A stretch of DNA of 64,000 nt from Alphaproteobacteria bacterium (lineage in GTDB: Bacteria > Pseudomonadota > Alphaproteobacteria > Micavibrionales > UBA2020). The position numbers and the translations under genes are program-made. This document shows, in pieces, positions 6,693 to 64,000 of the stretch (position 1 is its first letter; each line of letters begins with the position of its first letter). The stretch lies in contig JAIXUW010000292.1 of NCBI GenBank assembly GCA_027483355.1, positions 68,628 through 132,627 of the forward strand. Direction: 5' to 3'. The notes beneath the pieces were generated by a model, which worked only from the letters and a program-made list of their open reading frames with translations, searched no databases and was not told where the DNA came from.

Positions 6693-6712
6693 TTTTTTTC
6701 GTTCTTTCCTCT

Positions 6713-6721: not shown

Positions 6722-6920
6722 TGCGTGTTTTACAGACAAAGGTTCATGTAATCAAATGTGCGCAAAAAATGCGACTCAATGGCAATTATTTCAAAATAAA
6801 TGGGCGAGCTTGAAGAAATCAAATTACCCAAGCAGTTATTTAAAATTTTGCGCTTGGACGGCTCCATGTAACCAGTACATGATTCACAGATTTACAATTC
6901 AAGCCGGTTGTTTTTGTGCA

Positions 6921-17116: not shown

Positions 17117-20100
17117 TTAAAGGAGCCCCGTGGCTTGTTTTGCAAACCAATTGCTATAAAAGGGTTTGCCGTTTGCAGAGACGGGTACAGGTTCGGGATC
17201 GGGTTGATTCAACGACGGTAGCGGATTCGTTGGTTCTACGCTGCTCGTGTTCGGCAATATTGACGTTTCGAAAGCCGGCGGCGGTGGCGCTGTAGGAAAA
17301 CTCATGCCAGGCGCCGGGTACGTTTCAGACGAGAACGGCTGTGCAAAACTTGTGTTAGCCGCTGTGGACGTTTCATACAGGGACGGCTGCGCAAAACTTG
17401 TGTTAGACGTCATAGACGTATCGAACGGGACTCGGAGCGAAAAATTCGCAGGCTCCATGTCACTCACGTTGGGTAACATTGACATTCCATAGGGCGACAA
17501 GTTGTCGCTAGGCAACGTGTTTGTACCCGTTGAAGCATACAAGTAGTTTGCGATTGCTGCAGCGGTGCCAACGAGCGCGACGGCTGCTGCGGCCTTGACG
17601 TAAGGCGTGGCCTTTCCAAGCAGACCCATTATTTCCCACCCTTTTGTGACAATCAAGTTTTTCTTTTTCCCCGGATCAACTGCAATTTTGTTCTGGACAA
17701 TGTCGTTGAATTCCTTTTCTTTTACCTTGAGTTTAGTCTCAATCTGAGCCAGTTGCGGCGGCAATTCATCGTCGTCGTCGTCATCGTCTAATGCCAATTG
17801 CACTGTTATAGGGCCAGGTTGATTTGACGAATTTGACCCCGTGTATGCAATTGGTGCGTTTTGAGCGCGGTTCGGTGCCTTTGAAAAGGTATTGCGCTTG
17901 CGTTTTCCGGCGGGCTTTTGCACAACAGGCTGGTTTGTAACGGGCGCAGCCGGAACATTGGGTTGAATAGCAACAGGCACTTGCGGCGCTTGTGGCACTT
18001 GAGGTTGGATGACTGGCGCTTGTGGCACTTGAGGTTGGATGACTGGCGCTTGTGGCACTTGAGGTTGGATGACGGGCGCTTGTGGCACTTGAGGTTGGAT
18101 GACTGGCGCTTGTGGCACTTGTGGTTGGATGACGGGCGCTTGTGGCGCTTGCGGTTGAGCGGGAGGCACTTGAGGTTGCACAACAGGCAGTTGTGGCTGG
18201 CCGGGAGGCGCTTGTGGTTGCACGACGGGCACTTGTGGCTGAACAGCGGGAGCCACTTGTGGCGGAGCGGCAGGCGGGTTTCTTCTAAACCAATTTCCAA
18301 TGCTATTCACAATATCTCCAATCACTGCTGCTTTTTGAGGAACATACGCGGCTGCCTTTCTGAGACTAGACAGTACTTCTCCGGCTTTGCGTGTGAGCTC
18401 GGCGCCGTAGCCTGGTCTCTCGTACAGTTTCCGATACTCTCTAATCCTTTCCCTAAGCTCGCTGACTTCCGTTCTCGCAGCCGAGGCCTCAGATTCGACC
18501 TGTTTAGCACGCGCAGCCACCCTTCTCGCCTTTGCCTTTGCCGATCGAAGTTTCGCCGCGTTCTGACTCGACGCTCGCGAGTTGAATTTCATTCCGGCGA
18601 ATGTATTCTGCATTTCTTTCAATGCATATTCACCCAAGTGACCGGCTCGTTTTGTCAAATGCGACTTGTTCCACAGACTGTAGCGAGCCGTGGACGAGAA
18701 GGTGCTGCCCAAGTCCCACGCGATGAAAAGAGTAGTTTTCGACTTTTCCACATCGGCATTTTTTGCAAAATACGCGCTTATAGCTTTTTCTTCTTCCTCA
18801 AGCGTAATTGGGAGGAAATCAAACTCGGAGGTCGAGAAAATCGGCCGAATGTTGTCTGCCACGTAATTCTCTGCCGCCTTCACGTCGTATGCAGCAATTA
18901 CGACTTTTGTAACGACACCACTGAGAAGGAAAAGTGCTTCTGACATCGCTAACAAAGACACGGCGGGGACGGCAAGCCTGATCACTGGATATCCGTACCG
19001 CGCATCTCTCACGAGATACTCTTTGAAAATGTTTTGGTGGTACAGTGCTTCCATAATCAACTTTGAACCGCTCAAATACTGCTTGAGAGACAGTTCGCCG
19101 ATCAAAGTGCGAGACTGAGCCGATTCACGCAGTTCGGTTGCCGAAAATCCGTAGTTGACAACGGCATCGGGCGACGGGAAGCATCCATCGTAAATGTCGA
19201 ATGCGATCGAGTAGATGGCCGTGGTCACGGGCGCCCATGACTCAGTTGCGGTTTTTGCGAGACTCTGCACTTTGTCGGCCCATTCTTTAACAAGCGGGGT
19301 TGCCGCGTTTTGTGCTTGAAAGTGCTTGCCGATGACTTGCACAGCACGCATCAATTGTTCCACGCTGCCCTCGTATAAGAACGGTTGAAATTGAGCGTCC
19401 AAGATTGCCATACAGAGTTCTTGACCGAGTCCGGTCAAGTTGTAAAAGTCCATTTTGGACAATAGATCCAAAATTTTGTCGGCATAACCTTCCGATGCTT
19501 TGCTATACACTGCAGCGGACTTGATCCACGTGTCCACGAGTTCCTTTTCCAATTTCTCGTAGCTGGGGTCCGGAAGAACCAAATTTCTCGCCGCGTGAAC
19601 CTCGTCCCGAATCGTTGTTATGCTTTCTTCAGAAGCAGTCCAGCCGACCAGAGTGGCTGCAGCGGCAACTTGCACAGTGTCAGTCGAATCGACCTTTGCG
19701 AACACGTCGTATATTTGACGCGCTCGAGGCGGAAGCTGATTGATCATTGCCTGCATTCCGGTAATGGTAATAATCGAAGTGTACGTTCCGTATTTTTCAA
19801 ACGCTTTGGGCTCGCTGTTGAACGCACACGCGACCGCTTGCTGGTATTTTGTGAATATGGACAGATCCGGAAGCTTTGGCTTTTTCTCCTTTGGCGGCTT
19901 TGCATCGGGCGCAGGCGCGTCTTGGTCTCCATTTTCCGGAGCCGACATCTGTTCTGCCTTTCTTTTGCCCTTGGGTTTGGAATTACCGCCGCCGGCTTTT
20001 GGACCCCGAAGTTCAAACAGAGAGTTTGTCGGCGAGACGTCCATGGCGTCCTCCTCGTTCTTTTTCTTTTTAGACGACTTGCTCTCACGCTTGGTCAGAT

Positions 20101-23100
20101 CAATGCTTGTTTTCTCGTCGGGGCTGTCGCGACGTCTTGTTGCAATAGCAAGCAACATTAGCCGAATCGCAAATGCGACTAGCAACAACGAATTGTCGCC
20201 TTTTATGTTGTTTTGACCCATCACTCTACTAAGAGCGCCCAGCACGCGCTGGCAGTGTTCCGTCACCAAGTTTGATCTTTCAAAATATTCCAGCGTTGGC
20301 GTGGAAGTCAAAATCTCGCGGAAAAGTCCAAAGTGCGTTGGCGTTTTCATGGCCAAGCAGACGCCGTCGCAGAACAAGCGCAGATCTGTTTTAGGAGACA
20401 TTGGCGTTCCCTTTTGCACGACCTTCTCGGCGTCCTCGGTGGAAACAAGTTTTTTCTCCATCATAGAACCGCCCCATCTAGTCTGGGAATTTGACACGAG
20501 CATTCTTGGGGGCACTTGCGATTCCGGGACCAGTGCAAATCCGACTTCCGCTGGTATTTTGTCGAACCAACGACTTTGCACATGTTGAGCGTAGTGAATG
20601 ACCGCCTGAGCGTGTTCTTTGTCGCGTCCTTTCAATTGTTCACCGTTGCCGGATACAAGGGCGATGGAAGCCTGAGTAACAAAGCCGGCGTTTTCAAATC
20701 TGTTCACGGATTCTGTGATCAGTGGAATCATCTCATTCGTAATTTCCAAATGCAATCCAATGAGACCTAGATCGGTAGCAAGATGATTGATAAACCCGAC
20801 AAGTGTAACTGTCCTTTCGTCTATCGTTATCCACTCAGATTCGAGAATTCCTCTAATCTTGTTGTAGAGAGAAAAGAGCGGCCCGGGCTGAAACGTGTTC
20901 TCGACAATATGCAACGCTTTCACAAGTGCCGCAAATGCCATGTACACAGAGCACCAAAATCTTGAAATAAAGTGCGTTTGCATTCTCCAGAGCTCGGTGT
21001 CGACAAAAGCCGCTTTGGCGGATCGCAGCGCCATTTGATAAACACTCAAAATGTCCAATGCACGTTGTATGATACGTTCAAACGTAATCGTCGCCATTGA
21101 AGCGTTGAATTCAATGTAGGATGGCACATGGTATGAATACGGCGCATTGTTGGTTTCGAACAAATGTGTTGCAAAAATATCGGAACTGCTCTTCATCCTG
21201 TACACCATGTACTGTAATTTTGCACAATGTGGAATCATAGAGCGCAGTTCTTCGGGAGCAAGCCGAAGCATTTTTGAGGTTTTTGGGATCTGAACCGCAT
21301 TTGCCAAGTTTTTCACCGTGGCAATCAACGCGTCGACCGTGATCCTATTCTGCGGAAATGCAAGATTGAAATGTGACTTTTGGCTGACAAAAGCCGATTT
21401 TACGAGCCGGTAAATTGTCTTGATGGCAGCACCGGACAAATCCAGGTTCCTTGTGCCCGAAATACTCTGCATTGTAAACGGAGACGGGAATTCCATGGTT
21501 GTGCTAGTGCCAAGCATTTCCTTTCTCAGCCTTTCAGCTCGCTCGGCAACGACGCCGTCGGGCGCAATGCGGACAAAATTATTGTCCAGTGCATCGAACG
21601 AGTTAAGAATATCGTCGGGCTTCAGTCTAGAGTCGTCAAATTTCTTTGCCACGGCGATAATCTCTGTGCCCAAGAACTCTAAAAACACATCAAACTGTTC
21701 ACTTGTTTCAGCACTGTTAAACACAGAGGGCAGCCACGGGAACCGCATTGTGAGGCGGTCTACTTCAAGCGACAGATCCACCATGTCTTGAGTCAAATTC
21801 GGAACAGAGCTCTTCTCAATTTTGTACAACACGGCATTGGCTGCAAAATTTGCATCAACAAATCTCTTGTATCGCTTTGCAAACCAGGCGTGCCAACGGC
21901 TGTTAGGATCACGCAATAGAGACATGAGCAGCCGCGCGAATTTTGTGTTTCCGGGCAGCATGTAACAAGGCAGATATAGACTGGGCAGGTTTCCCTGTCC
22001 AAACTTAATGCCCCACGCCTTTTTCATGGCCTCGAAGAGAATTCGTCCTTCGGACGCTTCCTGTTCAAAGGAAACCTTGTCGCCTTCTTGACTTTTAGTC
22101 TCGCATAACTTGAACAAAAGAACAAACGCGCCAATGGATTCGGCAAGCCAAATATGAAATATAGATTCTTCAGTGGACGGAACTGCAGTTCCATCGGCAA
22201 TTTCCGAAAGGTTCTCAAAATACTGCTTCCATTTGTCATTACCCTGAGAGTTTACCGCAGCGTCGATAACCGCAGAGAACCTCAATCCATACAGCAATTT
22301 TGGCGAAGGGTTGGCAACAGCGGACAAAAATTCACTTGCAGAAAGAGCCAACTCTGATTCTTTAACAGTATCCTCTCCTTGTTTTCTCTGAGTAACAAAC
22401 TCGGCGGCACCATAGGTCTCAAGCTTGGCGCCTTCGATTGTGTTGCACAGTCGTGCCAACAAAGCGCTTGGGTAGATTCCAGTTTGCACTGAAAAGGGAA
22501 ATTCAATCCGCTGCGATTCCTTTTGCACAGCATCCTCGTACGAGGAATTCCTCACGGGAATCATATAGTTTTGAGGCAGACACAATGCCGACCCGGCAAG
22601 TTTACCCAGCGAAAGGCTGCCAAGCGGAAGTTTGCTTCCTTCGTCAACGGCGGTGACTACATGGCGAGTGAATACTTGGCTTGTATCGACGCAAAAGGCT
22701 TCTGTGTAACTGTCCGCTTTCACAAGATTGTCTATAACACGTTCGGGATGCATGTCGACAGCCGCAGCGAGGCTGCGCCCTTGAAGATCAGGGCGGAATT
22801 TTTCGCGCAGAATACCTTTTACGTCGTCGAGATCAATGTCAAAGGAGACTTCTCCGCTTTTCGTATCGTCGTAATTAACGTTCTTGTCGGACACCATATA
22901 GAGAATAGCTTCAATGGTCTCGAATCCGTCATCGTCTTCGTCGTCCTCGCCGTTCTTGTCTCCGTTCTTGTCTCCGCCGCCGCCATTATCATCATCCTCG
23001 TCGCTGTCGGCTAAGAACGAGTCTTCCTCGTTTTCGGAAGATGACGCTTTTTTAGCAGGTACAGCTGCAGGGTTGTCCACATCCATAGCGTCGTCAGACT

Positions 23101-24319
23101 CGTCGTCACTGCTGTCTATTTGCTTCCAGCCATCGTCAAATGAATCGTAGTCACTATCTTCAGCAAAAATCGTTTCCGCCGATGCCTTGTATTCGTCTTC
23201 AATTCTTCCTCTCAGCTGGTTTGTCAACACGTCTATTTCTTCGGCGTTATAACTACCGGAATCCGCAAAAATCGTTTTACTGGACCTGTACGCGCGATGA
23301 AGAGCGTAGACCGCCGCAGTTAAGCGCTCTTCGTCCAACGTATCGTCGACTCCCTCGATCATTTCCGGGATCAATGTAACGGGCTTTTGCACATAAGGAG
23401 AAGTATCCGTAGTTGTTGCAATATCAACAGCCGCGAGCTTTAAGCCGAGCAAGATGGCCAAGTCCGCGTAGATGAACCGGAATCTCGGCAGCAATTCAGC
23501 TCTACTTTGAGCCGAAAGTGAAATCCACAACGCTGCCGCGAACGCAGCCGTTTTTATCAAAAGGAAACACGATCTTTTCATACTTTCCGGCAAGAATGCG
23601 CCCATGGCGTCGTCATACGCATAAAACAGTCTATACATGTCCGTGGACAGATTTTTGTATATCAGAGCCACGACAGACGGATCCGTTACGGGTTCTGCGC
23701 ATTCAACGTCTGAGAATTCCGCGGTGAACATGGAAGGCGGAGTTGGAAGCAGACTCTGTTGGTTCACCTTGGTTTGCAGAAACTCGTGCGCTGTTTCAGA
23801 GACGATTCTAGCAAATTTTGCTTGTGCTCCAATTTGATCCGTCAGAATGTAGTCGCATAAGAAAGCGATATAGTGGTATGTCTTTTCCAACGCCAAAGCG
23901 TCAAGAAGAATCGTTTCGTTCGAGGTCATCTCATCGCCGACAAAAATCTGTTTTTGACGATTAACGACCAAGGGCATAAATGTAGCCATGAAATATCCGG
24001 TCTGACCGTTGGCGGAAAACAGAGCATCTCTCCATTGTTTTTGCAAATCACGTTTCTCCGAGTCCGAGTCCGCAAATTCGATTCCAGAATCGTCGTATGA
24101 AAATAACTGAACCAGGCTCTCGGAAAAGGAAGCATACTGCGCAGATGATTGAGCGGCGTTTTTCAACCATGCGTTGTACTCTAGCGCGCGTGCTCGCAAC
24201 TGATTGTAGTTTAGATAGCGCCTATTGCCACCGAAATATTGCTTGTAGTTTTGCGGGTCAAAAAGACTTTGTATAGAACCGAGGTCAACGTCGGAAATCT
24301 TCAAGTTGTTCTCTGACAT
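17117..24319 (-). CDS. Very large tail-anchored protein (2400 aa) with acidic tracts and a PQ-rich tandem repeat
   Basis: The first ATG is at 24319 (MSENNLKISDVDLG); the track start is TTG. It has acidic runs (DSSDDESDD, DDDDDDDE), a basic coiled segment, five PQVPQAPVIQ repeats and a hydrophobic segment near the C-terminus (AAAAVALVGTAAAIANYLY). Confidence 0.85.
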   Translation of the reverse strand: MSENNLKISDVDLGSIQSLFDPQNYKQYFGGNRRYLNYNQLRARALEYNAWLKNAAQSSAQYASFSESLVQLFSYDDSGIEFADSDSEKRDLQKQWRDALFSANGQTGYFMATFMPLVVNRQKQIFVGDEMTSNETILLDALALEKTYHYIAFLCDYILTDQIGAQAKFARIVSETAHEFLQTKVNQQSLLPTPPSMFTAEFSDVECAEPVTDPSVVALIYKNLSTDMYRLFYAYDDAMGAFLPESMKRSCFLLIKTAAFAAALWISLSAQSRAELLPRFRFIYADLAILLGLKLAAVDIATTTDTSPYVQKPVTLIPEMIEGVDDTLDEERLTAAVYALHRAYRSSKTIFADSGSYNAEEIDVLTNQLRGRIEDEYKASAETIFAEDSDYDSFDDGWKQIDSSDDESDDAMDVDNPAAVPAKKASSSENEEDSFLADSDEDDDNGGGGDKNGDKNGEDDEDDDGFETIEAILYMVSDKNVNYDDTKSGEVSFDIDLDDVKGILREKFRPDLQGRSLAAAVDMHPERVIDNLVKADSYTEAFCVDTSQVFTRHVVTAVDEGSKLPLGSLSLGKLAGSALCLPQNYMIPVRNSSYEDAVQKESQRIEFPFSVQTGIYPSALLARLCNTIEGAKLETYGAAEFVTQRKQGEDTVKESELALSASEFLSAVANPSPKLLYGLRFSAVIDAAVNSQGNDKWKQYFENLSEIADGTAVPSTEESIFHIWLAESIGAFVLLFKLCETKSQEGDKVSFEQEASEGRILFEAMKKAWGIKFGQGNLPSLYLPCYMLPGNTKFARLLMSLLRDPNSRWHAWFAKRYKRFVDANFAANAVLYKIEKSSVPNLTQDMVDLSLEVDRLTMRFPWLPSVFNSAETSEQFDVFLEFLGTEIIAVAKKFDDSRLKPDDILNSFDALDNNFVRIAPDGVVAERAERLRKEMLGTSTTMEFPSPFTMQSISGTRNLDLSGAAIKTIYRLVKSAFVSQKSHFNLAFPQNRITVDALIATVKNLANAVQIPKTSKMLRLAPEELRSMIPHCAKLQYMVYRMKSSSDIFATHLFETNNAPYSYHVPSYIEFNASMATITFERIIQRALDILSVYQMALRSAKAAFVDTELWRMQTHFISRFWCSVYMAFAALVKALHIVENTFQPGPLFSLYNKIRGILESEWITIDERTVTLVGFINHLATDLGLIGLHLEITNEMIPLITESVNRFENAGFVTQASIALVSGNGEQLKGRDKEHAQAVIHYAQHVQSRWFDKIPAEVGFALVPESQVPPRMLVSNSQTRWGGSMMEKKLVSTEDAEKVVQKGTPMSPKTDLRLFCDGVCLAMKTPTHFGLFREILTSTPTLEYFERSNLVTEHCQRVLGALSRVMGQNNIKGDNSLLLVAFAIRLMLLAIATRRRDSPDEKTSIDLTKRESKSSKKKKNEEDAMDVSPTNSLFELRGPKAGGGNSKPKGKRKAEQMSAPENGDQDAPAPDAKPPKEKKPKLPDLSIFTKYQQAVACAFNSEPKAFEKYGTYTSIITITGMQAMINQLPPRARQIYDVFAKVDSTDTVQVAAAATLVGWTASEESITTIRDEVHAARNLVLPDPSYEKLEKELVDTWIKSAAVYSKASEGYADKILDLLSKMDFYNLTGLGQELCMAILDAQFQPFLYEGSVEQLMRAVQVIGKHFQAQNAATPLVKEWADKVQSLAKTATESWAPVTTAIYSIAFDIYDGCFPSPDAVVNYGFSATELRESAQSRTLIGELSLKQYLSGSKLIMEALYHQNIFKEYLVRDARYGYPVIRLAVPAVSLLAMSEALFLLSGVVTKVVIAAYDVKAAENYVADNIRPIFSTSEFDFLPITLEEEEKAISAYFAKNADVEKSKTTLFIAWDLGSTFSSTARYSLWNKSHLTKRAGHLGEYALKEMQNTFAGMKFNSRASSQNAAKLRSAKAKARRVAARAKQVESEASAARTEVSELRERIREYRKLYERPGYGAELTRKAGEVLSSLRKAAAYVPQKAAVIGDIVNSIGNWFRRNPPAAPPQVAPAVQPQVPVVQPQAPPGQPQLPVVQPQVPPAQPQAPQAPVIQPQVPQAPVIQPQVPQAPVIQPQVPQAPVIQPQVPQAPVIQPQVPQAPQVPVAIQPNVPAAPVTNQPVVQKPAGKRKRNTFSKAPNRAQNAPIAYTGSNSSNQPGPITVQLALDDDDDDDELPPQLAQIETKLKVKEKEFNDIVQNKIAVDPGKKKNLIVTKGWEIMGLLGKATPYVKAAAAVALVGTAAAIANYLYASTGTNTLPSDNLSPYGMSMLPNVSDMEPANFSLRVPFDTSMTSNTSFAQPSLYETSTAANTSFAQPFSSETYPAPGMSFPTAPPPPAFETSILPNTSSVEPTNPLPSLNQPDPEPVPVSANGKPFYSNWFAKQATGLL
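18001..18150. repeat. Five tandem copies of a 30-bp unit (gaggttggatgactggcgcttgtggcactt), in frame within the 2400-aa CDS
   Basis: Read directly: the units start at 18001, 18031, 18061, 18091 and 18121 with 1-3 substitutions. Degenerate copies flank the array (about 17940-18265). The unit encodes PQVPQAPVIQ on the minus strand. Confidence 0.9.
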
Positions 24320-24470
24320 TATGTATGTCAAAAAAAAAACAAAGAATCCTCGTATCTATACTTCTCTATTACATCCAACTATCCCTATTGCTTTTTCAAT
24401 AACCGTTTTATTTTTTCTTTCAAATATACATACACGGCATCAAATCAACGCAGATCAGAGAAACCCCATA

Positions 24471-28815: not shown

Positions 28816-30765
28816 TTATTTATTGCCATAAAACCTTTGTAAAGTTCTCGTGTTGACTTGCACGTCGGCGGGGTGAGGTACCTTTGCAAAACTGATATTC
28901 TCAAATTTCCTTGCTCGCGATGCGGCCACGTAGAGCGAGTGATTTCCAAAACATTGACCATTTCCTTCGTTTTGAACATGCACGTTGTTCAATGTCATTC
29001 CTTGCGCTCTATGAACGGTGATAGCGTAGCCTAAGTAGAAGGGCCACTGCACTCGACAGGCAACTTCTTTCGCTTCAGGCACTTTCTTGACCGGGTTGTA
29101 CTTGAACTCGTAGCATGAAAACTTCTGAGGGTAGACAAGAACAGGGATATCCAAATGTTCAAATTTGACAAGCACGCAAGTGCAATTATCTAGACCTCGA
29201 TGCGGAGACTTGGGCGCGACAGCGCATGGCGCAAACAAATCCGAAACCCGATCGCCAGGCTTTTCCTCCCAGTGTTCGGAACATATGCTCAGAAATGACG
29301 ACCAGCCCGAAGACGAGCCATCGGCGTCATGCACGTTGACACGGCAGTGAAGATCAGCATTCTTGCTGCTTGCTCTATTTTCTGCGGCGTAATTCATCAA
29401 ATCAACCAGATCGGCGACTTTAGCTCCGCCACCAAAGTTGAAAACGTAGTTGGATAAAGATGCGCCGGAGTAGTCCGTTGTTTGAAACGTCAAAATGGCC
29501 TGTACAATTCCGCGCGCGCCCTTGACGATTCCACTGTTGACACAAATGTTGTGAATCAAAATCACAGATGCTCCCACGCACAAATCGACAGAATTGGGGA
29601 GAGCGTCGGCCAGGTCGGAAGCGTAGGCTTGGAGCATATACTTCTCTTGAGGCGGGCCCAGAGGGCTGAAATCACACGCAAGTTGATTCGCCAACTTGAA
29701 ATTGCGTTTTTGAGACACGATTCCGTACAGAACACCGTTGATATGCGACGCGAGATCGTTTTGCCCAACGAGCATGACGGGCGCGTCCTTTGGGCTGACT
29801 TTAGCCCTATCTAACACTTTGTCTAATGCGTTGACTTTGATGAGCTCGGAAAACTTGCCCGGGTCCAGGCCTCCAACACGCATAGAGGAGAGAAAATCCT
29901 GAAATCTCTCGTCGTCCTTGGCTCTTTGATTCTGTTCCAACGAGAGCACATGAGGCGCGAAGAGGGCCCATAGTTCGGATTCCCAGCAACATTGGGCTGG
30001 CGCCGTCGGCCGAGACACGGGCTCGAGTTGAAGTGGGTCGCCCACAAGGACGATGGTTGGGAACGAGTTTTTCCACGCCGAGCCCATTTGGGCGAAATTA
30101 CGCAAGAGAGGCATCCAAAAGCTGCCGTTCAGAAAATACTTGTCTTCCGCAGGTTTGGAATCGTATTTGTTCATATTGGACGAGTAGGTCGTTTGTCTAG
30201 ACCCAGAAGAAGCACTTGCCTTGGCGTGATATTCACGCAGAGCGGTTCTGACCTCGGGAAAGTAGTCCCGTGGATCCGTTCTTTTCCAAAACGCGATGCA
30301 GCACATGATAAACCGTGCCATAAAACGATCGAATAGCTCCGCGCTCATCATGCTGATCTCGTCTATCACAACGTACTTTAACTTGCCGCGCAGAGAGAAC
30401 CAAGGTTCAAGCCGTTCGTTGCACGTGGCTTGAAATCGCTTTTTGTTATCGTAACAAATACCTTCTATCCATTTAGAATCAGCGTCCATTAAACAGAACG
30501 CGCGATGAATCGTACAAGCGCGGTGTTCGGAGAAATTAGACGCGGCTTGATTTGTTGTCGCCGTAATCATGACCTCGCCCTCGCTATGATTTTTCAACAA
30601 GTGCTTGACAAGATGAGATTTTCCGGAGCCTCCAGGAGCCGCGAGAAAGTACACAGGAGACACGCGGCTTGTAATGGCATTGTACGCTGCAGCCTGTTCA
30701 CTTGAAAGTGGGCTGGCCTCAGAGACAGCCATTTCTTCGTCAGAGTCGTAAATAACAATGGCCAT
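28816..30765 (-). CDS. PIF1/RecD-like SF1 helicase (649 aa)
   Basis: The motifs appear in order: Walker A AAPGGSGKSH (30616-30642), Walker B VVIDEISMM, GDPLQLEPV, LEQNQRAKDD..F, VGASVILIHN...VKGARGIV, ITVHRAQGMTL and LYVAASRAR. The first ATG is at 30765 (MAIVIYDSDEE); the track start is TTG. Confidence 0.85.
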   Translation of the reverse strand: MAIVIYDSDEEMAVSEASPLSSEQAAAYNAITSRVSPVYFLAAPGGSGKSHLVKHLLKNHSEGEVMITATTNQAASNFSEHRACTIHRAFCLMDADSKWIEGICYDNKKRFQATCNERLEPWFSLRGKLKYVVIDEISMMSAELFDRFMARFIMCCIAFWKRTDPRDYFPEVRTALREYHAKASASSGSRQTTYSSNMNKYDSKPAEDKYFLNGSFWMPLLRNFAQMGSAWKNSFPTIVLVGDPLQLEPVSRPTAPAQCCWESELWALFAPHVLSLEQNQRAKDDERFQDFLSSMRVGGLDPGKFSELIKVNALDKVLDRAKVSPKDAPVMLVGQNDLASHINGVLYGIVSQKRNFKLANQLACDFSPLGPPQEKYMLQAYASDLADALPNSVDLCVGASVILIHNICVNSGIVKGARGIVQAILTFQTTDYSGASLSNYVFNFGGGAKVADLVDLMNYAAENRASSKNADLHCRVNVHDADGSSSGWSSFLSICSEHWEEKPGDRVSDLFAPCAVAPKSPHRGLDNCTCVLVKFEHLDIPVLVYPQKFSCYEFKYNPVKKVPEAKEVACRVQWPFYLGYAITVHRAQGMTLNNVHVQNEGNGQCFGNHSLYVAASRARKFENISFAKVPHPADVQVNTRTLQRFYGNK

Positions 30766-30950
30766 TGAAGTTTTAGAGAACTGTCTGTGAAAATGCAAAC
30801 AAAATCTGGCAGATGTAGTGGGCGAGGGGATATAGGCGCGCGCGCACAAAAAGAACGACAAGGTGCGCCACAACGAGAACTTTAGTTAATTGTATTTTTT
30901 TATTGCGTATTCCTAAAACGTATCTAATTACGTACCCTACTTATTCAAGA

Positions 30951-56292: not shown

Positions 56293-56701
56293 GATTGAGT
56301 AGATGCTGTTCGAATATGCACTACCAAGAATGAATGGAATTTGTGTACGCGGCCCGAACAGCGCAGCGCGGATTTTTTTTTGCTCGGGGTGGGGAGACAC
56401 AGCGGCGTTTTTATTCTCCGCACACACGCGCGCGAAAAAAACAGTTTGCTTTCACTCCCTCGAGTTTGAATTTGAATTTAGACTGTTACAAGTTTTATAC
56501 AAACAGATTGTGCGTGTGTTTTTATAAATGTTACGATAAAATACGTTTGATTTGGCGTCGGCGCGATTTTTGTGCGCTCGCCGGGCAAAAGAAAAATTTG
56601 TAGCGGCTTTCCTCGCGCTCTTTTCTATTCGGAAAAATTCACACTAGATTCCCTATTCTAATCCCTGTTCATTTCTCAGTATCGTGAGAAAATCTAGCCC
56701 C

Positions 56702-58339
56702 ATGTCCGCGCCTTTTACTTTGTACGACCTCCCGGACGAACTACTCACCAACCACATCATCCAACATTTGGATTTCACAAGCCGTCGCTGTCTAACATGC
56801 GCAGGCAAACGCGGTCGCGACATGGTGGTTGCTACACGCGGCGTGATTCATCGACCCGGAGCATGGGGCGCTTCTGCCTCTCCTCCTCTTCCCAACAATC
56901 TTTGGGTATTTTACGAGGCATGCACACGTACCTATGCCTTTGCATGCACCAACAGCTGCGAGCCTATCCTGCGTTACAAAATGGGCTGGCTGACCGTGCC
57001 CTTTGTTGGCTCCAGGCAAGTTCTCCGCGCCTTTGACTGGATGTCTCTTCGCGTGGGATTCGCGTTTTTGGCATCCCCTCGCGATTTTGCGAGCGTGGTA
57101 TGGTGTTACATTAGGAAAGATTCGCGAAAGCATTGTCTCGGATTGCAGGATTTGCTCCACCGCCAAGTGCCGCAGGTCAACGACGACGTTGTTGACATTA
57201 CTCCTGCGCTCAGATATTTCGAAGCCGTTTGCGGTTATATGGCGAAATCGGAGAAGGATTTGTTTAGGATTTTTGCGCTATTGTTCAAGCGCCGCCTTTC
57301 GACATTTGAAGAGGCCTGGGACACGGTCGGCCGTGACGCGCCTGACGGAAATCAGGACGAGTGGCTTACAAAGAAATGCATTAGATTGGAGCTTAATGCA
57401 ATGTGCCACGCTTGGTCGTATCTCCAAATTCTTTGCGCGACTCTTCGCGAGAGGACCATTTCTTCTTCTTCTGCGGATGCCGAAGCCACTGATATGACTG
57501 CCGCAATTCGACTGCGAAGTTTTTACAACGAACTGCCTTGGCAGCATTATAGCGACAGCGACGACATTGTGGAGAATACCATAGCCTGGCCTGGATGCAC
57601 TTTTCAGGATGTTTCTCAGTTTTATTCGGAGACGGCTCAAGTCAACACCGCCTACTCAAAGTGCAAGGATGAGATGACGGAGTGCATTTTTAAGCTTGTT
57701 GCCCCATGCGAATCGAAAGACGCCCGACTTCTAGCTGGTGATCGGGGTCAGACCGTTTACGGATCAGAACCTGCAAATGCTTTGCTCTACATCTCAGCGG
57801 CTGTGCGCTATTACGCATTGGACCCCTGTATGAGCGAATATGACGAGAAGTTTCGTGTCTCCATTCACCGCGCTGTGAAACGCGATCTGCTCGTTTCTAC
57901 TGAACTTCCCGCGCACATCACAGCGCAGATGAATCGAACAATGTTTGTGCCTCTCCCATTTCACTTTAAGAGCGAATTCGATGCAGCCACGGCGAACGTG
58001 GACAAGTACGTTGCTTATTTTGCTTCATGCAACGGACATTTTCAGTTTTGGGACCCGGCATTGGTGGATGCCTCTATCAACGCGGGCAACATTCCTTATC
58101 TGTCTCGCAAAGAAACCATCTTGTTGATTCGGAGAATGGGCAGACGTACGTTGGGTCTCGTGTCTGACGCCGACGAATTCTTCCCTTTGGATCCCGAGCG
58201 CGATGACGATGACTATTGGGGACATGGCACGACCTTAAATTGGAACCTGATGCTACTTGATGGCACTGTGGTAGAAGAATTGTGCAAGCGAAACCCTGTT
58301 CAGGTGGGGTGGATTCATAACACACGCGTTTGGCGCTAG
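56702..58339 (+). CDS. F-box protein (545 aa)
   Basis: First ATG at 56702. The N-terminus MSAPFTLYDLPDELLTNHIIQHLDFTSRRCLTCAGKRGRDMV fits the F-box consensus (LPdEll..I...L......l..vck.w). I do not recognise the C-terminal 500 aa. Confidence 0.8.
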   Translation: MSAPFTLYDLPDELLTNHIIQHLDFTSRRCLTCAGKRGRDMVVATRGVIHRPGAWGASASPPLPNNLWVFYEACTRTYAFACTNSCEPILRYKMGWLTVPFVGSRQVLRAFDWMSLRVGFAFLASPRDFASVVWCYIRKDSRKHCLGLQDLLHRQVPQVNDDVVDITPALRYFEAVCGYMAKSEKDLFRIFALLFKRRLSTFEEAWDTVGRDAPDGNQDEWLTKKCIRLELNAMCHAWSYLQILCATLRERTISSSSADAEATDMTAAIRLRSFYNELPWQHYSDSDDIVENTIAWPGCTFQDVSQFYSETAQVNTAYSKCKDEMTECIFKLVAPCESKDARLLAGDRGQTVYGSEPANALLYISAAVRYYALDPCMSEYDEKFRVSIHRAVKRDLLVSTELPAHITAQMNRTMFVPLPFHFKSEFDAATANVDKYVAYFASCNGHFQFWDPALVDASINAGNIPYLSRKETILLIRRMGRRTLGLVSDADEFFPLDPERDDDDYWGHGTTLNWNLMLLDGTVVEELCKRNPVQVGWIHNTRVWR

Positions 58340-58396: not shown

Positions 58397-60349
58397 ATGG
58401 ATCTCGTTCAATACCGCAATTGGTGCTGGCCAGACTCGGGCGACGATTTTCACGCGTGGTTGCGGGCCCACCCGACGATCCCGTATTTTGACCATGAAAA
58501 ATTCCGACTCATGAAAGTGCAAGAGTACTCGAGATACTATGAAGAACTCAAAATGAGCAAGGCGCCCATTTTCACGTCGGGTTTACTCGGCTCGCGCCGT
58601 CCCAAGGAAGTAAACGTGACGCTGTTAGTCATGGAATGTCAATTGTTGGACAGATACGCGTTAGTTCGATCCATGAACAAATTGGGCGAAGAGGAGACTA
58701 TTGCGATCGAGCCCACTGCCGAGTACAAGGCAGCGCCGTTCAACATTAACATCAATCGGTATTTTGAGCGGTTCTTTGTAGAAGACGGTTGCGCGATTCA
58801 GGAAAATCAAAGAGGAAGTGAAAAGACGATTCGAGGATCGTTTGGTAAACCATTCAATTGCTTGTACAGCATTACAGCACACGGAGTGATCACATGTCAG
58901 CTGTCCAAAGAAAGCATTCAATGTATGCTTACGGCCATGCTGGCTTTGGAGACTTTAATCCAACGCGTTGAGCAGGTGCATCGACCGACGGCGACTCCGT
59001 TTACTGTGCGCCACGCCCGCATAGCTACGATGCAAGCCACATGTGATTTCGGAGTCAAAGCCGATGTGCATGCTCTGAAATTCTGGAACCCTTGGAGTAC
59101 AAAGGAGTATACTAAAAATACGACGGCTGGGTTTGAAAGCACAGACACTGACACTGGTGCGACTTCCTCAAACTCGCCTGCGAAACAAGGCAATAGTGGC
59201 AGCGGTAGCAGTAGTAGTAGAAAGAAAAGCGGACTAGAATCCAAAATGAATATCCAATTCAACAATATTGTGTATTACACGGCGAGCTCGGCGAGTTTCC
59301 GTCAAATGTGCATTCCCAAGCCTCCGTTTTTCGCCATGACCAACGAAACGCGATACGAAGCCGAAAAGGACTTTTTGGTCGGCAATTTGACACCCGTCTC
59401 ACCCGAGGCAGGCTATGTGAGCAGGGAAGACAAGTTGCCCTGTCGCCCCACGACGATTTCGACTGTTTTCATGGCTCAACACGGCAAATCCACAGTTTCT
59501 TGCATCAATTGCACGAGTTGGATCGAGTGCCTGGCGGGGTTTACGGAGCTTTACGAGCAAATTCTGTTTTGTGAATACGCCGGACGATTGATCGAGCCCG
59601 CGCTGTCCGAATGCCGATCTATGATTGTTAATTGCAAGGAGTCTCTAAACAAGTTTATGTATCAAAAGGATCTGGCCGATATCGTATGCGAGCACTTTAA
59701 GAAAACGTTTTGTCCTGTATGGAGTTCCATTGTCGTGTTCCCGTCGGACAAAATCACGCCCGAATTCGCGCGAGAAATACAAGATATTGTGAGCTCGACG
59801 CTCGTAAATTCATTCTACAACTGCAGGAATCACACGACCAAGGAGCATTACTCGGCCGACTTGTTCAAGGGATTAGAGATCGAGCTCAATGAACGAATCG
59901 AGGCGGAACTCAGAATACAAGAAGAACTGAAAATGAGACTTAATTCCGACAAATTCTACGACGTGAAACGAGCAAAGGGTGGTGCAAAAGGCGCGGCGGC
60001 CAATAATTCTACCGCCTCAGCCGCGGCGGCTGCAAGTCGTGCGACCAATCTACGCGCTCGAGGTCAGACTACGGCCAAAAATGGCGCTGTAGCAAAACAA
60101 GGCGCGAAACGACGCGTCGTGTACTTGAATTCCACTCCTCTGCCGCTCACCTCGACTCCAAGCCACCATCACTTTGAAGACGAATACGCTTCGTCTGATG
60201 TGGCGCCCAAGGCGAGCCAATCTTGCCCCAAATGCATCATGGGACTTTTACTGCTGCACTTGCCCTACATTAGACAAGATGAAATTCACTTTATGGACAA
60301 GATAAGAGGCGTGACCGACAATATGTGGCTGTATTTACAAACTAAATGA
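58397..60349 (+). CDS. Hypothetical protein (650 aa)
   Basis: First ATG at 58397 (MDLVQYRNWCW) with CTATAAATC about 30 nt upstream. It has a Ser-rich patch (GNSGSGSSSSRKKSG). Its 3' end overlaps the convergent gene by 15 nt. Confidence 0.8.
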   Translation: MDLVQYRNWCWPDSGDDFHAWLRAHPTIPYFDHEKFRLMKVQEYSRYYEELKMSKAPIFTSGLLGSRRPKEVNVTLLVMECQLLDRYALVRSMNKLGEEETIAIEPTAEYKAAPFNININRYFERFFVEDGCAIQENQRGSEKTIRGSFGKPFNCLYSITAHGVITCQLSKESIQCMLTAMLALETLIQRVEQVHRPTATPFTVRHARIATMQATCDFGVKADVHALKFWNPWSTKEYTKNTTAGFESTDTDTGATSSNSPAKQGNSGSGSSSSRKKSGLESKMNIQFNNIVYYTASSASFRQMCIPKPPFFAMTNETRYEAEKDFLVGNLTPVSPEAGYVSREDKLPCRPTTISTVFMAQHGKSTVSCINCTSWIECLAGFTELYEQILFCEYAGRLIEPALSECRSMIVNCKESLNKFMYQKDLADIVCEHFKKTFCPVWSSIVVFPSDKITPEFAREIQDIVSSTLVNSFYNCRNHTTKEHYSADLFKGLEIELNERIEAELRIQEELKMRLNSDKFYDVKRAKGGAKGAAANNSTASAAAAASRATNLRARGQTTAKNGAVAKQGAKRRVVYLNSTPLPLTSTPSHHHFEDEYASSDVAPKASQSCPKCIMGLLLLHLPYIRQDEIHFMDKIRGVTDNMWLYLQTK

Positions 60350-61096
60350 ACTCAGTTCTTCCCCGTCTCTTGAAATCTGCGCGGTCGTTTGCTGCTGTGA
60401 AGACAATTCAAACTCGGCGACGCTGATGCGTGGCGGCTCGAGAGGCACGGGTGGCATGTCGGTCAGCAACAAATCCGGGCCGGCATACTCCACATGTACG
60501 AGTGGATCTGAAGCTGGTAATATGGACTCTCCCAGTTCTTCTAGCGCTTCGTCGAGAGACATATCCGCTGTGGGATCCAAGTTGACAAATTCGTGCTTTG
60601 TTTCTTCAATCACCGCGTCCATGTCCTCGATCACGTCGGCCAGTTCGTCTGTATGCGCCACGTAAGCTCTCTCGGTTTGTTCGATTTGAGGCAAAGCTGC
60701 TTTTCCAAGTCTAGCCGTGGCCAAAGTCAACTGAGCCGCGTTGGCAATCGTCCTTTCTTTCATAATCGTTTCCTGAACTTTGTTTGCCGTCGCCAGCACC
60801 GTCTGTATTCTTTTCAAATCATGTTTTGCAGTGTCAATGTCACGCTTGAGAGCCACGCAACTTTGACTGAGCCGTCGCGCTTGCTCTTTGGACTTTGGGT
60901 CGTCGCGCAAAAGAAGTTTTTTGAGCACCAACGTGTCATTATGAAATCTTGATTCCTTCTCTTGAACCATGACCTGAATCCGCATAGCGTCTTGGAGCAC
61001 TCGTTGGTGCTTGGAAAGAGTCTCGGATTCGAGTGGCGACCGATGAGCAACTTGGGTTCCACGTTTAGAGCCGCGATTCGCACCAGCGTACGCCAT
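60335..61096 (-). CDS. Snf7/ESCRT-III-like (CHMP2/Vps2-type) protein (253 aa)
   Basis: First ATG at 61096 (MAYAGANRGSKRG). It has a basic helical N-terminal half and an acidic C-terminal half. HQRVLQDAMR, then 96 aa, then LPQIEQTERAYVAHTDELADVIEDMDAVIEE...DEALEELGESI parallels human CHMP2A NQRALNRAMR, 92 aa, LPQIQKIMMEFERQAEIMDMKEEMMNDAIDD...SQVLDELGLSL (CHMP2A recalled from memory). Confidence 0.75.
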   Translation of the reverse strand: MAYAGANRGSKRGTQVAHRSPLESETLSKHQRVLQDAMRIQVMVQEKESRFHNDTLVLKKLLLRDDPKSKEQARRLSQSCVALKRDIDTAKHDLKRIQTVLATANKVQETIMKERTIANAAQLTLATARLGKAALPQIEQTERAYVAHTDELADVIEDMDAVIEETKHEFVNLDPTADMSLDEALEELGESILPASDPLVHVEYAGPDLLLTDMPPVPLEPPRISVAEFELSSQQQTTAQISRDGEELSSFSL

Positions 61097-61125: not shown

Positions 61126-63333
61126 CTATTTACGCGGCACGAACTCGGGCGGTAGTCGATCTGCTAATAGCTGTGGCTGTGGGCGATAGTCTTGTATCCT
61201 CTGCAGCAATTCTCTTAGCAGTCTCGCAGACGATTTCGCAGACACTAGCGTTTCAATTGGTCCGCTTCCAGTTTCCTTTCGAACGACGAGAATAAATTTG
61301 GCTACGAATTCCGCAAACAGAGACTTGAATCCAGTATCGGGCATTGTAATCGTCGGCATCGGGTCAAAATACTGCCAGTTCATATCAAACCCACGCACGG
61401 AGGTTTTCATGTGCGAAGTTGCGGTTTGAATCGCGGCTTGCACGACTGGAGAAAATCTAAACGTGCCACTCATGACCGGGTCAACACGACGTGCTACTTG
61501 AGCTATGATTGCCTTTTTTGCGGCTTCCTGAGAAATATAATCCTTGATTTGGGGCAGTGAAAAGATTTGCTGCCTGGTTTCGTCAATCTGCATGCGATTT
61601 TGCTCGACTTTTTTCACAGAGGCTGCTTGGATGGGTTCCATGAGCATAGCGACAACTTCGTGTACGAATTGATACATCAAAACGTTGACAATGACCGCGA
61701 AGCGCAGATCAAAGTAAATGTTTATACGATATTCGGCTACAAAATTGTAGAGCATGCACGCTAATGAAAGCAGAATTTCCGCTTTACTCAGTCTCGCGGG
61801 GTCGTTGAATAGAAACCCAATATTTGTACTTGCAAAGTTAGGTATGTCGCGAATTAGCCCAAGAGCTTCACGCGGCTCTCCGAGTTTCACGAGGCATTCT
61901 TGTATTTTTACTTGCAATTCATTGGTGTCGCTGTGTCGAGACAGTTGGTGCAAAATATGCGCGCACTTTTTGAACACGTCGGATAATGCAGTTTCCTTTT
62001 CCAAATACACTGCCAAATTAGAGATGGCAGTTTTGAGGGGCGTCAAGTCCTCTATCTTCTGCAATTCGGGTTGCACAAATTTCAACAATCCTGTAGCAAC
62101 CTCGGCCTTTCTTTTGCTTGCTTCGGCGCTGTTTGAACCTTTGTATTTATACTTGACCGCAGACAGCGCGGTTCGCGCCAACTCGTCGGCCGTGTCCGCA
62201 ATCTGACCGGCGCGGAAATTTACAAATGGAACACGGTCGCCATCGGAGTCAATACTTGATTCTGTATACGGGGTGTATTCTAGTGTCACCGTAGAATCGC
62301 CTTTGTAAGGAACGCTCAGAGTAAATAGGTTGACATATTTGGAAAGGCTTGCCAGTGCCTCGTTGGATGCAAAATCTGGCGCAGTGGCTTCGGTTTTAAT
62401 CGTTTCCCATATATCGCCCAAAATCGATGTGTATGCGTCGTTTGCGTTTCCAAGACCAGTGCCAGGCGCAAACGCCGACTTGATGGACTCAAGTTTAGAA
62501 CTTGCCAGGTATCTGTCGAGTGCTCCATTCGGACCTAAAATTTGCACTTTTGCGCGATAATGCCCCTGTGCCGACTGGAGGGTGAGTCCGTTGCCAATCT
62601 TTCTCACCAGGTCATCGATTTTTTGTATAAACTGAGGCCCTGAAAAGGACTTGATAGGTGGCATGACAAGATTGACAGCTTGTCCAATTTCGCTGACGAT
62701 AGCGTTTAGCGCGGTTTGATTCATCGCCAAGAGACTATCGGATTGTTTAGCCACGGGTATAAAATTTTTGAGATCTTTTAGAAAATCGCGCATGAAATCC
62801 GAAAATTGGTTTTTGACAATGGTCGTGTAGTCGGATCTCAGCAACAAGTCGGTTGTTTGAACTTGCAAATTGCCTTGAATGCCAATCAAGAATTGGTATG
62901 TCGGATCGGCTAATAGCAAAGCCAGACGAGCGTCAAGAAGTTCAAACACTTCGTCGCTAAATGCTTTTTGTATACGCGCTGTGTCTGTTTCTTTACTCGT
63001 GGCATTTTCTACGAATCGATTGTAAATCCGAAGATCCTTTGCGTCCGTCGGCACCGCGTTCACCCATTCGGCTTTAAACCTGTCGCCGGCTTCAGCCGAC
63101 GCTCTATCCACAGCATATCCGTCTACTGTTGGAACAAGATACTTGGCCGCGCCTGTAGCAAGCGTTGGCACGACGAATGGCTTTGAAAAGTCAGCTTCTC
63201 TTGCCGCGGCTATGTGATCGTCCGAATCACTCTGTTCTATCTTCTGCCTCTTGGGCGCTCTAATTTCGTCAACGTAAGCGCTTGATTCGGGTACCGCTCC
63301 GCTGCGATACCAAGGAACGTTTGAAGCGGACAT
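61126..63333 (-). CDS. Large hypothetical protein (735 aa) with an N-terminal NLS-like APKRQK
   Basis: ATG start (MSASNVPWYRSGAV) and an uninterrupted ORF. No motif recognised. Confidence 0.85.
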   Translation of the reverse strand: MSASNVPWYRSGAVPESSAYVDEIRAPKRQKIEQSDSDDHIAAAREADFSKPFVVPTLATGAAKYLVPTVDGYAVDRASAEAGDRFKAEWVNAVPTDAKDLRIYNRFVENATSKETDTARIQKAFSDEVFELLDARLALLLADPTYQFLIGIQGNLQVQTTDLLLRSDYTTIVKNQFSDFMRDFLKDLKNFIPVAKQSDSLLAMNQTALNAIVSEIGQAVNLVMPPIKSFSGPQFIQKIDDLVRKIGNGLTLQSAQGHYRAKVQILGPNGALDRYLASSKLESIKSAFAPGTGLGNANDAYTSILGDIWETIKTEATAPDFASNEALASLSKYVNLFTLSVPYKGDSTVTLEYTPYTESSIDSDGDRVPFVNFRAGQIADTADELARTALSAVKYKYKGSNSAEASKRKAEVATGLLKFVQPELQKIEDLTPLKTAISNLAVYLEKETALSDVFKKCAHILHQLSRHSDTNELQVKIQECLVKLGEPREALGLIRDIPNFASTNIGFLFNDPARLSKAEILLSLACMLYNFVAEYRINIYFDLRFAVIVNVLMYQFVHEVVAMLMEPIQAASVKKVEQNRMQIDETRQQIFSLPQIKDYISQEAAKKAIIAQVARRVDPVMSGTFRFSPVVQAAIQTATSHMKTSVRGFDMNWQYFDPMPTITMPDTGFKSLFAEFVAKFILVVRKETGSGPIETLVSAKSSARLLRELLQRIQDYRPQPQLLADRLPPEFVPRK

Positions 63334-63551: not shown

Positions 63552-64000
63552 ATGAACGCCGCCGAGGAGGATACGGTGCGACAGCATGTCAACAAAGTTC
63601 GCCAGGTTGCGAGTAGCGAATTCAAGCTCGCGGCGCTGTTTATGATTGAAAAAGCATATCGGCTGCCTGATGAAAATCGCTTGAACTTTATAAAACAATG
63701 CGTTGCATGCTATGATGGAGATATTGCAATGGTCTGGAGCCCAGACGACGCCTTGCTTCCGCCCGATTTGGGAACAGACAATGTCGACGCTGTAGAAAAT
63801 CAAAGAACAGAATTGGCATCGATTTTATATGACAATTTGAACCCTTGGGACAAGGGTACACTAGAAGTGTTTGATGGCAACGTCGCAGCTAGGCGGCTGT
63901 GGCGCTCGTTCTTGTTCCTTCTGCGATTCAAAATTGCATTGGAAAATATGACGCCGCAAATGGGCCAAAACCAAAATGACGCTATCGTGGCCGATAGACA
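63552..64000 (+). CDS. Hypothetical protein; 5' end complete, 3' end beyond the window (at least 149 aa)
   Basis: The ATG at 63552 (MNAAEEDTVRQHVNKVRQVASSEF...) stays open to 64000 in my translation. It is not in the ORF track because it has no stop. The listed antisense ORF 63450..63803 looks spurious. Confidence 0.6.
   Translation, partial: MNAAEEDTVRQHVNKVRQVASSEFKLAALFMIEKAYRLPDENRLNFIKQCVACYDGDIAMVWSPDDALLPPDLGTDNVDAVENQRTELASILYDNLNPWDKGTLEVFDGNVAARRLWRSFLFLLRFKIALENMTPQMGQNQNDAIVADR

Follow-up and report, generated by a model that had tools for sequence, protein, structure and literature searches.

A conserved helical protein with possible ESCRT-III-like features encoded in a virus-like stretch of DNA

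The gene and its homologs

The DNA analyzed here, 64,000 nucleotides of contig JAIXUW010000292.1 (the window), is best read as an as yet unclassified virus of marine plankton with a large DNA genome, or as a virus-like element of such plankton, and it has relatives on ENA contigs of 132-208 kb and on a Tara Oceans scaffold. Our subject is a coding sequence on its minus strand (60335..61096, stop codon included), whose product of 253 amino acids (aa) was proposed in an earlier note on this DNA to be an ESCRT-III homolog. The gene was delimited from the list of open reading frames (ORFs), the translation and homologs of 252-260 aa with 35-39% identity, labeled L003, L004, L005 and L006. The protein is read from an ATG as MAYAGANRG..., and the homologs start with MYAGA[NR]RG. 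Because the homologs begin at the Met of this M(A)YAGA[NR]RG motif, the ATG is taken as the start, and a GTG two codons further 5' (61102) was rejected on the same grounds.

The family is small in the databases searched. Among 1.84 billion representative proteins, searched exhaustively with phmmer, only the protein itself and one homolog with 39% identity were found, and a word-indexed profile search with the family added a third sequence, which is a near-duplicate. Further homologs were reached through a strongly conserved neighboring gene. The sole return of a metagenome scan was the Tara Oceans scaffold (L006), identical to L003, while scans of IMG/VR with the family, with the conserved neighbor or with a CHMP2A/Vps2 alignment gave no match. 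The four-way alignment used below (A4) contains the window protein, L003 (the same as L006), L004 from a JGI metagenome and L005 from a Logan assembly. In A4 the other members are 35-37% identical to the window protein, and pairwise alignment with the L003 homolog (A2) gives 39%. With an effective number of sequences (Neff) of 1.8, the family alignment has very little depth. A fifth syntenic gene, of 252 aa, lies on an ENA contig. Since divergent homologs occur in the same gene order, the ORF is a conserved protein-coding gene.

Both ends of the protein are conserved. The N-terminal motif M(A)YAGA[NR]RG (aa 1-9; 61070..61096, minus strand) has the A4-invariant residues M1, Y3, A4, G5, A6, R8 and G9, and is followed by a basic segment. 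In the AlphaFold2 models described below, residues 1-16 or 1-18 have a predicted local distance difference test score (pLDDT) below 50. ESCRT-III proteins carry a membrane-insertion motif at the equivalent N-terminal position, and the sequence of the window protein differs there. At the other end, the motif E[EF].SFS[LF] (aa 246-253; 60338..60361, minus strand) is invariant at E247, S250, F251 and S252 in A4. Neither of the conserved termini fits an assignable motif.

Predicted architecture and charge

AlphaFold2 was run twice, on the single sequence and on a three-row alignment, and gave the same model, in which helices at residues 21-63, 67-173 and 181-191 are followed by a disordered proline-rich tail. 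In both runs the hairpin was modeled with a pLDDT of 93-98 across residues 30-100. The first predicted helix (aa 21-63; 60908..61036, minus strand) is basic and forms the first hairpin arm, and profile alignment with hhalign pairs it with alpha1 of CHMP2A. The long predicted helix (aa 67-173; 60578..60898, minus strand) forms the second arm and its extension, comparable to alpha2-alpha4 of ‘open’ ESCRT-III. A hairpin of the alpha1-alpha2 type, named in the earlier note as a feature to look for in a predicted structure, is present in the model.

The most conserved part of the protein is a core motif within the long helix, LGK..LP.IE.TER.Y (aa 130-145; 60662..60709, minus strand), with L130, G131, K132, L135, P136, I138, E139, T141, E142, R143 and Y145 invariant in A4. 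Behind it follows a short, acidic, amphipathic predicted helix, LDEALEELGES (aa 181-191; 60524..60556, minus strand; modeled at 181-191 or 181-192), which hhalign pairs with CHMP2A alpha5 (VSQVLDELGLS). This is the leucine-rich acidic helix that had been described as lying near the end of the protein (DMSLDEALEELGESIL); it exists, but it is situated about 60 residues short of the C-terminus.

The proposed layout of a basic N-terminal and an acidic C-terminal half was borne out. The net charge of the window protein is +10 over residues 1-125 and -22 over residues 126-253, and the asymmetry is found in all four A4 members, whose charge is +8 to +12 on the N-terminal side of the LP motif and -14 to -24 on its C-terminal side; for CHMP2A the values are +17 and -18. 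The protein has no transmembrane-like segment.

The C-terminal tail

The tail is mostly variable and proline-rich, and A4 reveals two invariant islands in it: the extreme C-terminus described above and aa 208-224. The latter (60425..60475, minus strand) is a linear motif in the disordered region, DLL..D[LM]P.[VP]P..P..I, with invariant D208, L209, L210, D213, P215, P218, P221 and I224, and was characterized with A4, a pattern scan and shuffles. It resembles the type 2 MIT-interacting motif (MIM2). Its center reads DMPPVPLEP in the window protein and DLPEPP[IV]KP in the homologs, and the MIM2 of CHMP6 is ELPEVPSEP, as confirmed from the cloning primers in PMC11218997. The tail motif also fits the viral MIM2 (vMIM2) consensus given for human cytomegalovirus (HCMV) pUL71, (large hydrophobic)xxxPx(phi)(phi)xxx(phi) (PMC11218997). 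The pattern [DE][LM]Px[VP]PxxP occurs once in each of the four A4 members, at the same aligned position, and nowhere else in the 16,901 aa of window proteins.

Structural and profile matches

The predicted model was compared with known structures by Foldseek. In a first search of the PDB, the top seven matches, and 13 of the 15 best, were subunits of ESCRT-III, Asgard ESCRT-III, Vipp1 or PspA. In a second search, 16 of the 17 best matches were filament subunits of the ESCRT-III superfamily. The matches include CHMP1B, CHMP2A/3, Asgard ESCRT-IIIB, Loki CHMP4-7, Vipp1 and PspA, and the best match in the viral library BFVD is a ‘Snf7 family protein’.

Profile-profile comparison points in the same direction. 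When A4 was aligned by hhalign with a CHMP2A/2B/3/1A/1B/Vps2/Vps24 alignment, the score was 30.6 (P=9e-4, probability 22%) and the match was colinear over 186 columns; over all runs against this CHMP2/3/1 group the score was 28-31, with P=0.9-2e-3 and 161-186 columns. Reversed profiles scored 10-17, and 240 column shuffles gave means of 13.5-14.2 and a maximum of 23.1, so that none of the 240 reached the real score. The 28 other window proteins scored at most 20.2. Additionally, the alignment is in a meaningful register, as the turn of the AlphaFold2 hairpin (RDDP, aa 64-67) falls on the turn of CHMP2A (KQGQ), and the LP.IE.TER.Y motif of the family falls on the CHMP2A alpha3/alpha4 linker (LPQIQKIMMEF). 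The ESCRT-III reference sequences were confirmed as Snf7 family by Pfam.

The earlier note had pointed to two strings shared with human CHMP2A. The CHMP2A sequence used for comparison is identical to PDB 7zcg_B over residues 8-154. Both anchors are present, and the quoted strings are colinear (at 30, 135, 150 and 185 in the window protein, and at 18, 119, 138 and 168 in CHMP2A), but pairwise they are no better than chance. They also fare differently in the family: the second anchor is conserved as LP.IE.TER.Y, whereas the first (HQRVLQDAMR) is not, reading HNQAAHHAAI and HNRTIQEADG in homologs, with only H30 and A37 invariant in A4.

An ESCRT-III-like role and the evidence against it

We favor, with intermediate confidence, the reading that the gene, which is kept in a small group of such viruses or elements, encodes a soluble, all-helical, ESCRT-III-like protein with LGK..LP.IE.TER.Y as its conserved elbow and with a MIM2-like tail, which would act in envelopment through Vps4-type recruitment. 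Where virions are enveloped or bud, the basic hairpin would bind to a host membrane and possibly polymerize on it. The tail motif would recruit a protein of the host with a MIT domain, for example the ATPase Vps4, and in this manner the virus would provide membrane scission itself or couple to it. Cellular CHMP6 and CHMP4 act in this way, and HCMV pUL71 is reported to do so. The same role has been proposed for the herpesvirus proteins pUL51 and pUL71 (10.1101/810663, PMC11218997). The gene may go back to a Snf7-family gene that was captured and then changed too far to be recognized, or it may be an independent mimic.

Several results weigh against this reading. At the level of sequence, the HMMER search against Pfam Snf7 that the earlier note had set out came back empty: PF03357 had no match at E<=10 in the window protein or its three homologs in A4, while the same scan found it in all seven canonical ESCRT-III sequences used as positive control (best E=4.5e-51). 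Neither phmmer nor an hmmsearch with a two-sequence profile found an ESCRT-III protein at E<=10 among all PDB chains, and BLASTP against CHMP2A gave a single 15-residue match, the first anchor, with E=0.11 for that one comparison. The hhalign probabilities of 13-22% are sub-threshold. Moreover, the profile signal depends on the window sequence, since a profile of the three homologs scored 13.6 (P=0.37) and each of them singly scored 10-14, which is background; the LP.I segment is the sole stretch of the three-homolog profile that still aligns to CHMP2A. There was no hhalign signal with the CHMP4/Snf7/CHMP6/CHMP5 group, and an affinity to the CHMP4/Snf7 subfamily was rejected on this background-level result.

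The structural and motif evidence has limits of its own. All Foldseek E-values are 0.03-0.3, which is not significant, and the TM-scores (template modeling) are 0.3-0.5. The ranking, obtained with a predicted model, shows likeness of shape and not homology. A hairpin with a long helix is geometrically simple and, ESCRT-III filaments aside, found in few PDB structures, so that the enrichment cannot count as independent proof. The model itself was built on one to three sequences and represents the ‘open’ form only. In the tail, the pattern [DE][LM]Px[VP]PxxP arises in 0.13% of shuffles, but P-values of this kind are illustrative only, because the pattern was written after the sequences had been seen. 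No N-terminal ‘LFG’ or myristoylation motif is present in the protein. No MIM1 pattern was found in the tail, and a C-terminal MIM1 helix was rejected as a candidate for this reason; the C-terminal MIM that the earlier note had proposed to look for has its counterpart in the conserved proline motif that resembles MIM2.

The evidence does not establish the protein as a member of the Snf7 family. The two-part refutation named in advance comes out divided, as no Snf7 HMM match was found whereas the hairpin fold is predicted. The same holds for the proposed ESCRT-III homology as a whole, which agrees with the layout, the predicted hairpin and the MIM2-like motif, but not with the sequence tests against Pfam, the PDB and CHMP2A.

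These results might also be explained by an ordinary virus-specific helical or coiled-coil protein, such as a tegument, matrix, scaffold or adaptor protein, which would resemble ESCRT-III through its composition, a generic hairpin geometry and a few chance matches confined to the window sequence. We regard this as a serious possibility, although of less than even probability. It is in line with the uniformly negative standard sequence tests, the loss of the profile signal without the window sequence, the lack of conservation of the first anchor and the non-significant Foldseek E-values, and other hairpin proteins (prefoldin, FadA and ROP) do appear in the Foldseek lists. The family additionally has weak Pfam matches of coiled-coil type (HIP1_clath_bdg and CENP-H). 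However, an unrelated helical protein would leave the near-exclusive place of the ESCRT-III superfamily at the top of two Foldseek searches, the full-length colinear hhalign match with hairpin turn and LP.I linker in register, the conserved charge asymmetry and the conserved MIM2-like tail motif all as coincidences. If the ESCRT-III-like reading is wrong, the gene is one more conserved helical ORFan.

An ESCRT-III-like protein could also act as a decoy, engaging host ESCRT-III or Vps4 in order to block or divert it in a dominant-negative manner instead of performing scission for the virus. C-terminally altered CHMPs act as dominant-negatives, and the tail of the window protein, being long, divergent and without MIM1, might interact with no more than a part of the host machinery. 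The structural and motif evidence is shared with the envelopment role, and no sequence feature separates a decoy from an active protein. The gene is, however, kept beside highly conserved, core-like genes, which is at least as compatible with a role in structure or assembly, and we consider a decoy improbable.

Finally, it is very improbable that the virus is distantly herpes-like and the protein its ortholog of the herpesvirus tegument protein pUL51/pUL71/BSRF1. The size and plan are similar (helical hairpin, more helix, disordered proline-rich tail), the tail of HCMV pUL71 is of this kind and also bears a MIM2-like motif, and the window resembles a large enveloped DNA virus with few recognizable domains. 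However, hhalign of the A4 family against pUL51 of herpes simplex virus 1 (HSV-1) is at background (score 12, P=0.56), and orthology was rejected on this result; Pfam Herpes_UL51 has no match in the family, the HSV-1 pUL51 structure 6T5A is outside the top 50 Foldseek matches, and the reading presupposes a herpes-like virus. The HSV-1 pUL51 sequence used was checked against PDB 6t5a_A. No cysteine occurs in the window protein within residues 1-79, and its first 20 residues therefore lack an N-terminal palmitoylation cysteine as in pUL51.

Comparison with known systems

Among cellular proteins, the closest likeness is to CHMP2/CHMP3/CHMP1 (Vps2/Vps24/Did2). These share the length of about 220-250 aa, the basic N-terminal and acidic C-terminal halves, the alpha1/alpha2 hairpin (here predicted) running into a long helix as in the open conformer, an LP.I linker in register with LPQI of CHMP2A and a short acidic alpha5-like helix, and the profile alignment with them is colinear but weak. 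Unlike them, the window protein has no Pfam or PDB sequence match, no MIM1 helix and another N-terminal motif; its tail of about 60 residues has conserved motifs of its own, and the sister lineages give no profile signal. The proline motif in the disordered C-terminal tail is instead like the MIM2 of CHMP6/CHMP4 and the vMIM2 of HCMV pUL71. The helical core, in contrast, has no profile similarity to CHMP4/CHMP6 or pUL51, and MIT binding through the motif is putative.

Viral proteins of this type are already in the literature. Snf7 is a reported core gene of the mirusviruses (Mirusviricota), and their Snf7 proteins match Pfam PF03357 with E of 1e-8 to 1e-17 (PMC12768974). The likeness to the window protein lies in an ESCRT-III-type protein of about 200-290 aa in large DNA viruses of marine plankton, given that a relative of our protein is on a Tara Oceans scaffold. 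However, PF03357 does not recognize our family, and the window ORFs scanned showed no sign of the remaining core functions described for mirusviruses.

The herpesvirus proteins pUL51 and pUL71 are described as viral ESCRT-III-like proteins (10.1101/810663, PMC11218997). HSV-1 pUL51 has a helix-turn-helix hairpin that resembles CHMP4B without detectable sequence similarity to ESCRT-III (10.1101/810663), and HCMV pUL71 is reported to recruit VPS4A through a mimic of MIM2 (PMC11218997). Like the model of the window protein, HSV-1 pUL51 and BSRF1 of Epstein-Barr virus have a helical hairpin followed by a disordered tail, and their proposed role is in cytoplasmic envelopment. A difference is that no pUL7-like partner was recognized near our gene, whose neighbors are without recognizable domains. 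The earlier note had called a virus-encoded ESCRT-III subunit unusual; in view of the published mirusvirus and herpesvirus proteins this is outdated, and the concept is known whichever reading of the present gene holds.

If the protein is ESCRT-III-like, it would be the third sequence-unrelated case in large DNA viruses, after mirusvirus Snf7 and herpesvirus pUL51/pUL71, and a case that includes a Vps4-type recruitment motif. An ORFan family of uncultured marine viruses would gain a testable function in envelopment, and such proteins would be shown to slip past standard annotation. In its strongest form, the proposal is that the protein is a true member of the ESCRT-III superfamily, invisible to Pfam and with a working MIM2 that recruits Vps4, in an unclassified lineage of large marine DNA viruses apart from mirusviruses and orthoherpesviruses. 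We regard this stronger version as rather unlikely. If true, a scission subunit supplied by the virus would be a feature that recurs among large enveloped DNA viruses and diverged independently, and the protein would offer a minimal, highly diverged ESCRT-III in which to study what the fold needs.

Neighboring genes

The conserved neighbor through which homologs were reached encodes 650 aa on the plus strand (58397..60349). It converges on the 253-aa gene with an overlap of 15 nt, has 59% identity to its L003 homolog and has no Pfam or PDB match. Its homologs (L003:862-2766, L005:1080-2882 and L006:502-2406) span 600-654 aa, and it is far better conserved than the 253-aa protein, with 56-59% identity and long invariant runs. 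CxxC motifs are present as CINC and CPKC/CSKC. The convergent arrangement with its 15-nt overlap is repeated in L003, L004, L005, L006 and the ENA contig. As it always converges on the 253-aa gene in this manner, the neighbor probably belongs to the core genes of these viruses; its link to the 253-aa gene is one of conserved synteny only.

Upstream, a gene on the minus strand (61126..63333) encodes 735 aa without a known domain, and a syntenic gene of 751 aa is found on a related ENA contig. A 735-751-aa gene is thus upstream wherever that flank is visible (the window and the ENA contig). Sequence searches of the PDB with three neighbors were empty. The earlier note had placed the 253-aa gene among membrane-protein genes: the window does encode several predicted membrane proteins, both type I and multipass, but none immediately adjoins it.

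The wider window

When 29 window proteins were scanned against Pfam, no more than two matches scored above the curated cut-offs, one to a Pif1/SF1 helicase and one to a PKD domain. The former is an SF1/Pif1-type helicase (28816-30873, minus strand) that also has weak Herpes_Helicase and Viral_helicase1 matches, and the latter lies in an 864-aa membrane protein (10869-13463, plus strand). Sub-threshold matches among the window proteins were DOT1, DUF5900 and ALF. Searches of the window for tRNA genes and Rfam families gave no match.

Both strands of the window carry densely packed coding sequence, with the exception of bases 1-6700. This region has no ORF above 165 aa on either strand, an unusual AT skew at 4001-6000 and no notable repeats; possible explanations are non-coding DNA, a genome end or spliced genes. 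Next to it, an ORF on the plus strand (6756-9731) encodes a predicted type-I membrane glycoprotein of 991 aa with an extremely Cys/Lys-rich cytoplasmic tail (CCSRKSCKKCKRCKPCCGKPCCGKKKHRNQK), which is encoded in part by a 15-nt tandem repeat at 9673-9706. Tandem repeats are also found in an ORF of 2404 aa on the minus strand (17117-24331), whose sole domain match is a weak ALF repeat; they are 30 nt (10 aa) long at 17985-18157, with more repeats up to 18262.

Two further ORFs on the plus strand lie toward the end of the window. One of 551 aa (56684-58339) has an F-box-like N-terminus (LYDLPDELLTNHIIQHLD) without a Pfam match. The other (63600-64000) continues past the window end (MIEKAYRLPDENRLNFIKQCVACYDGD), and at the counterpart position a related ENA contig has a gene of 1282 aa, which is the size of a capsid protein.

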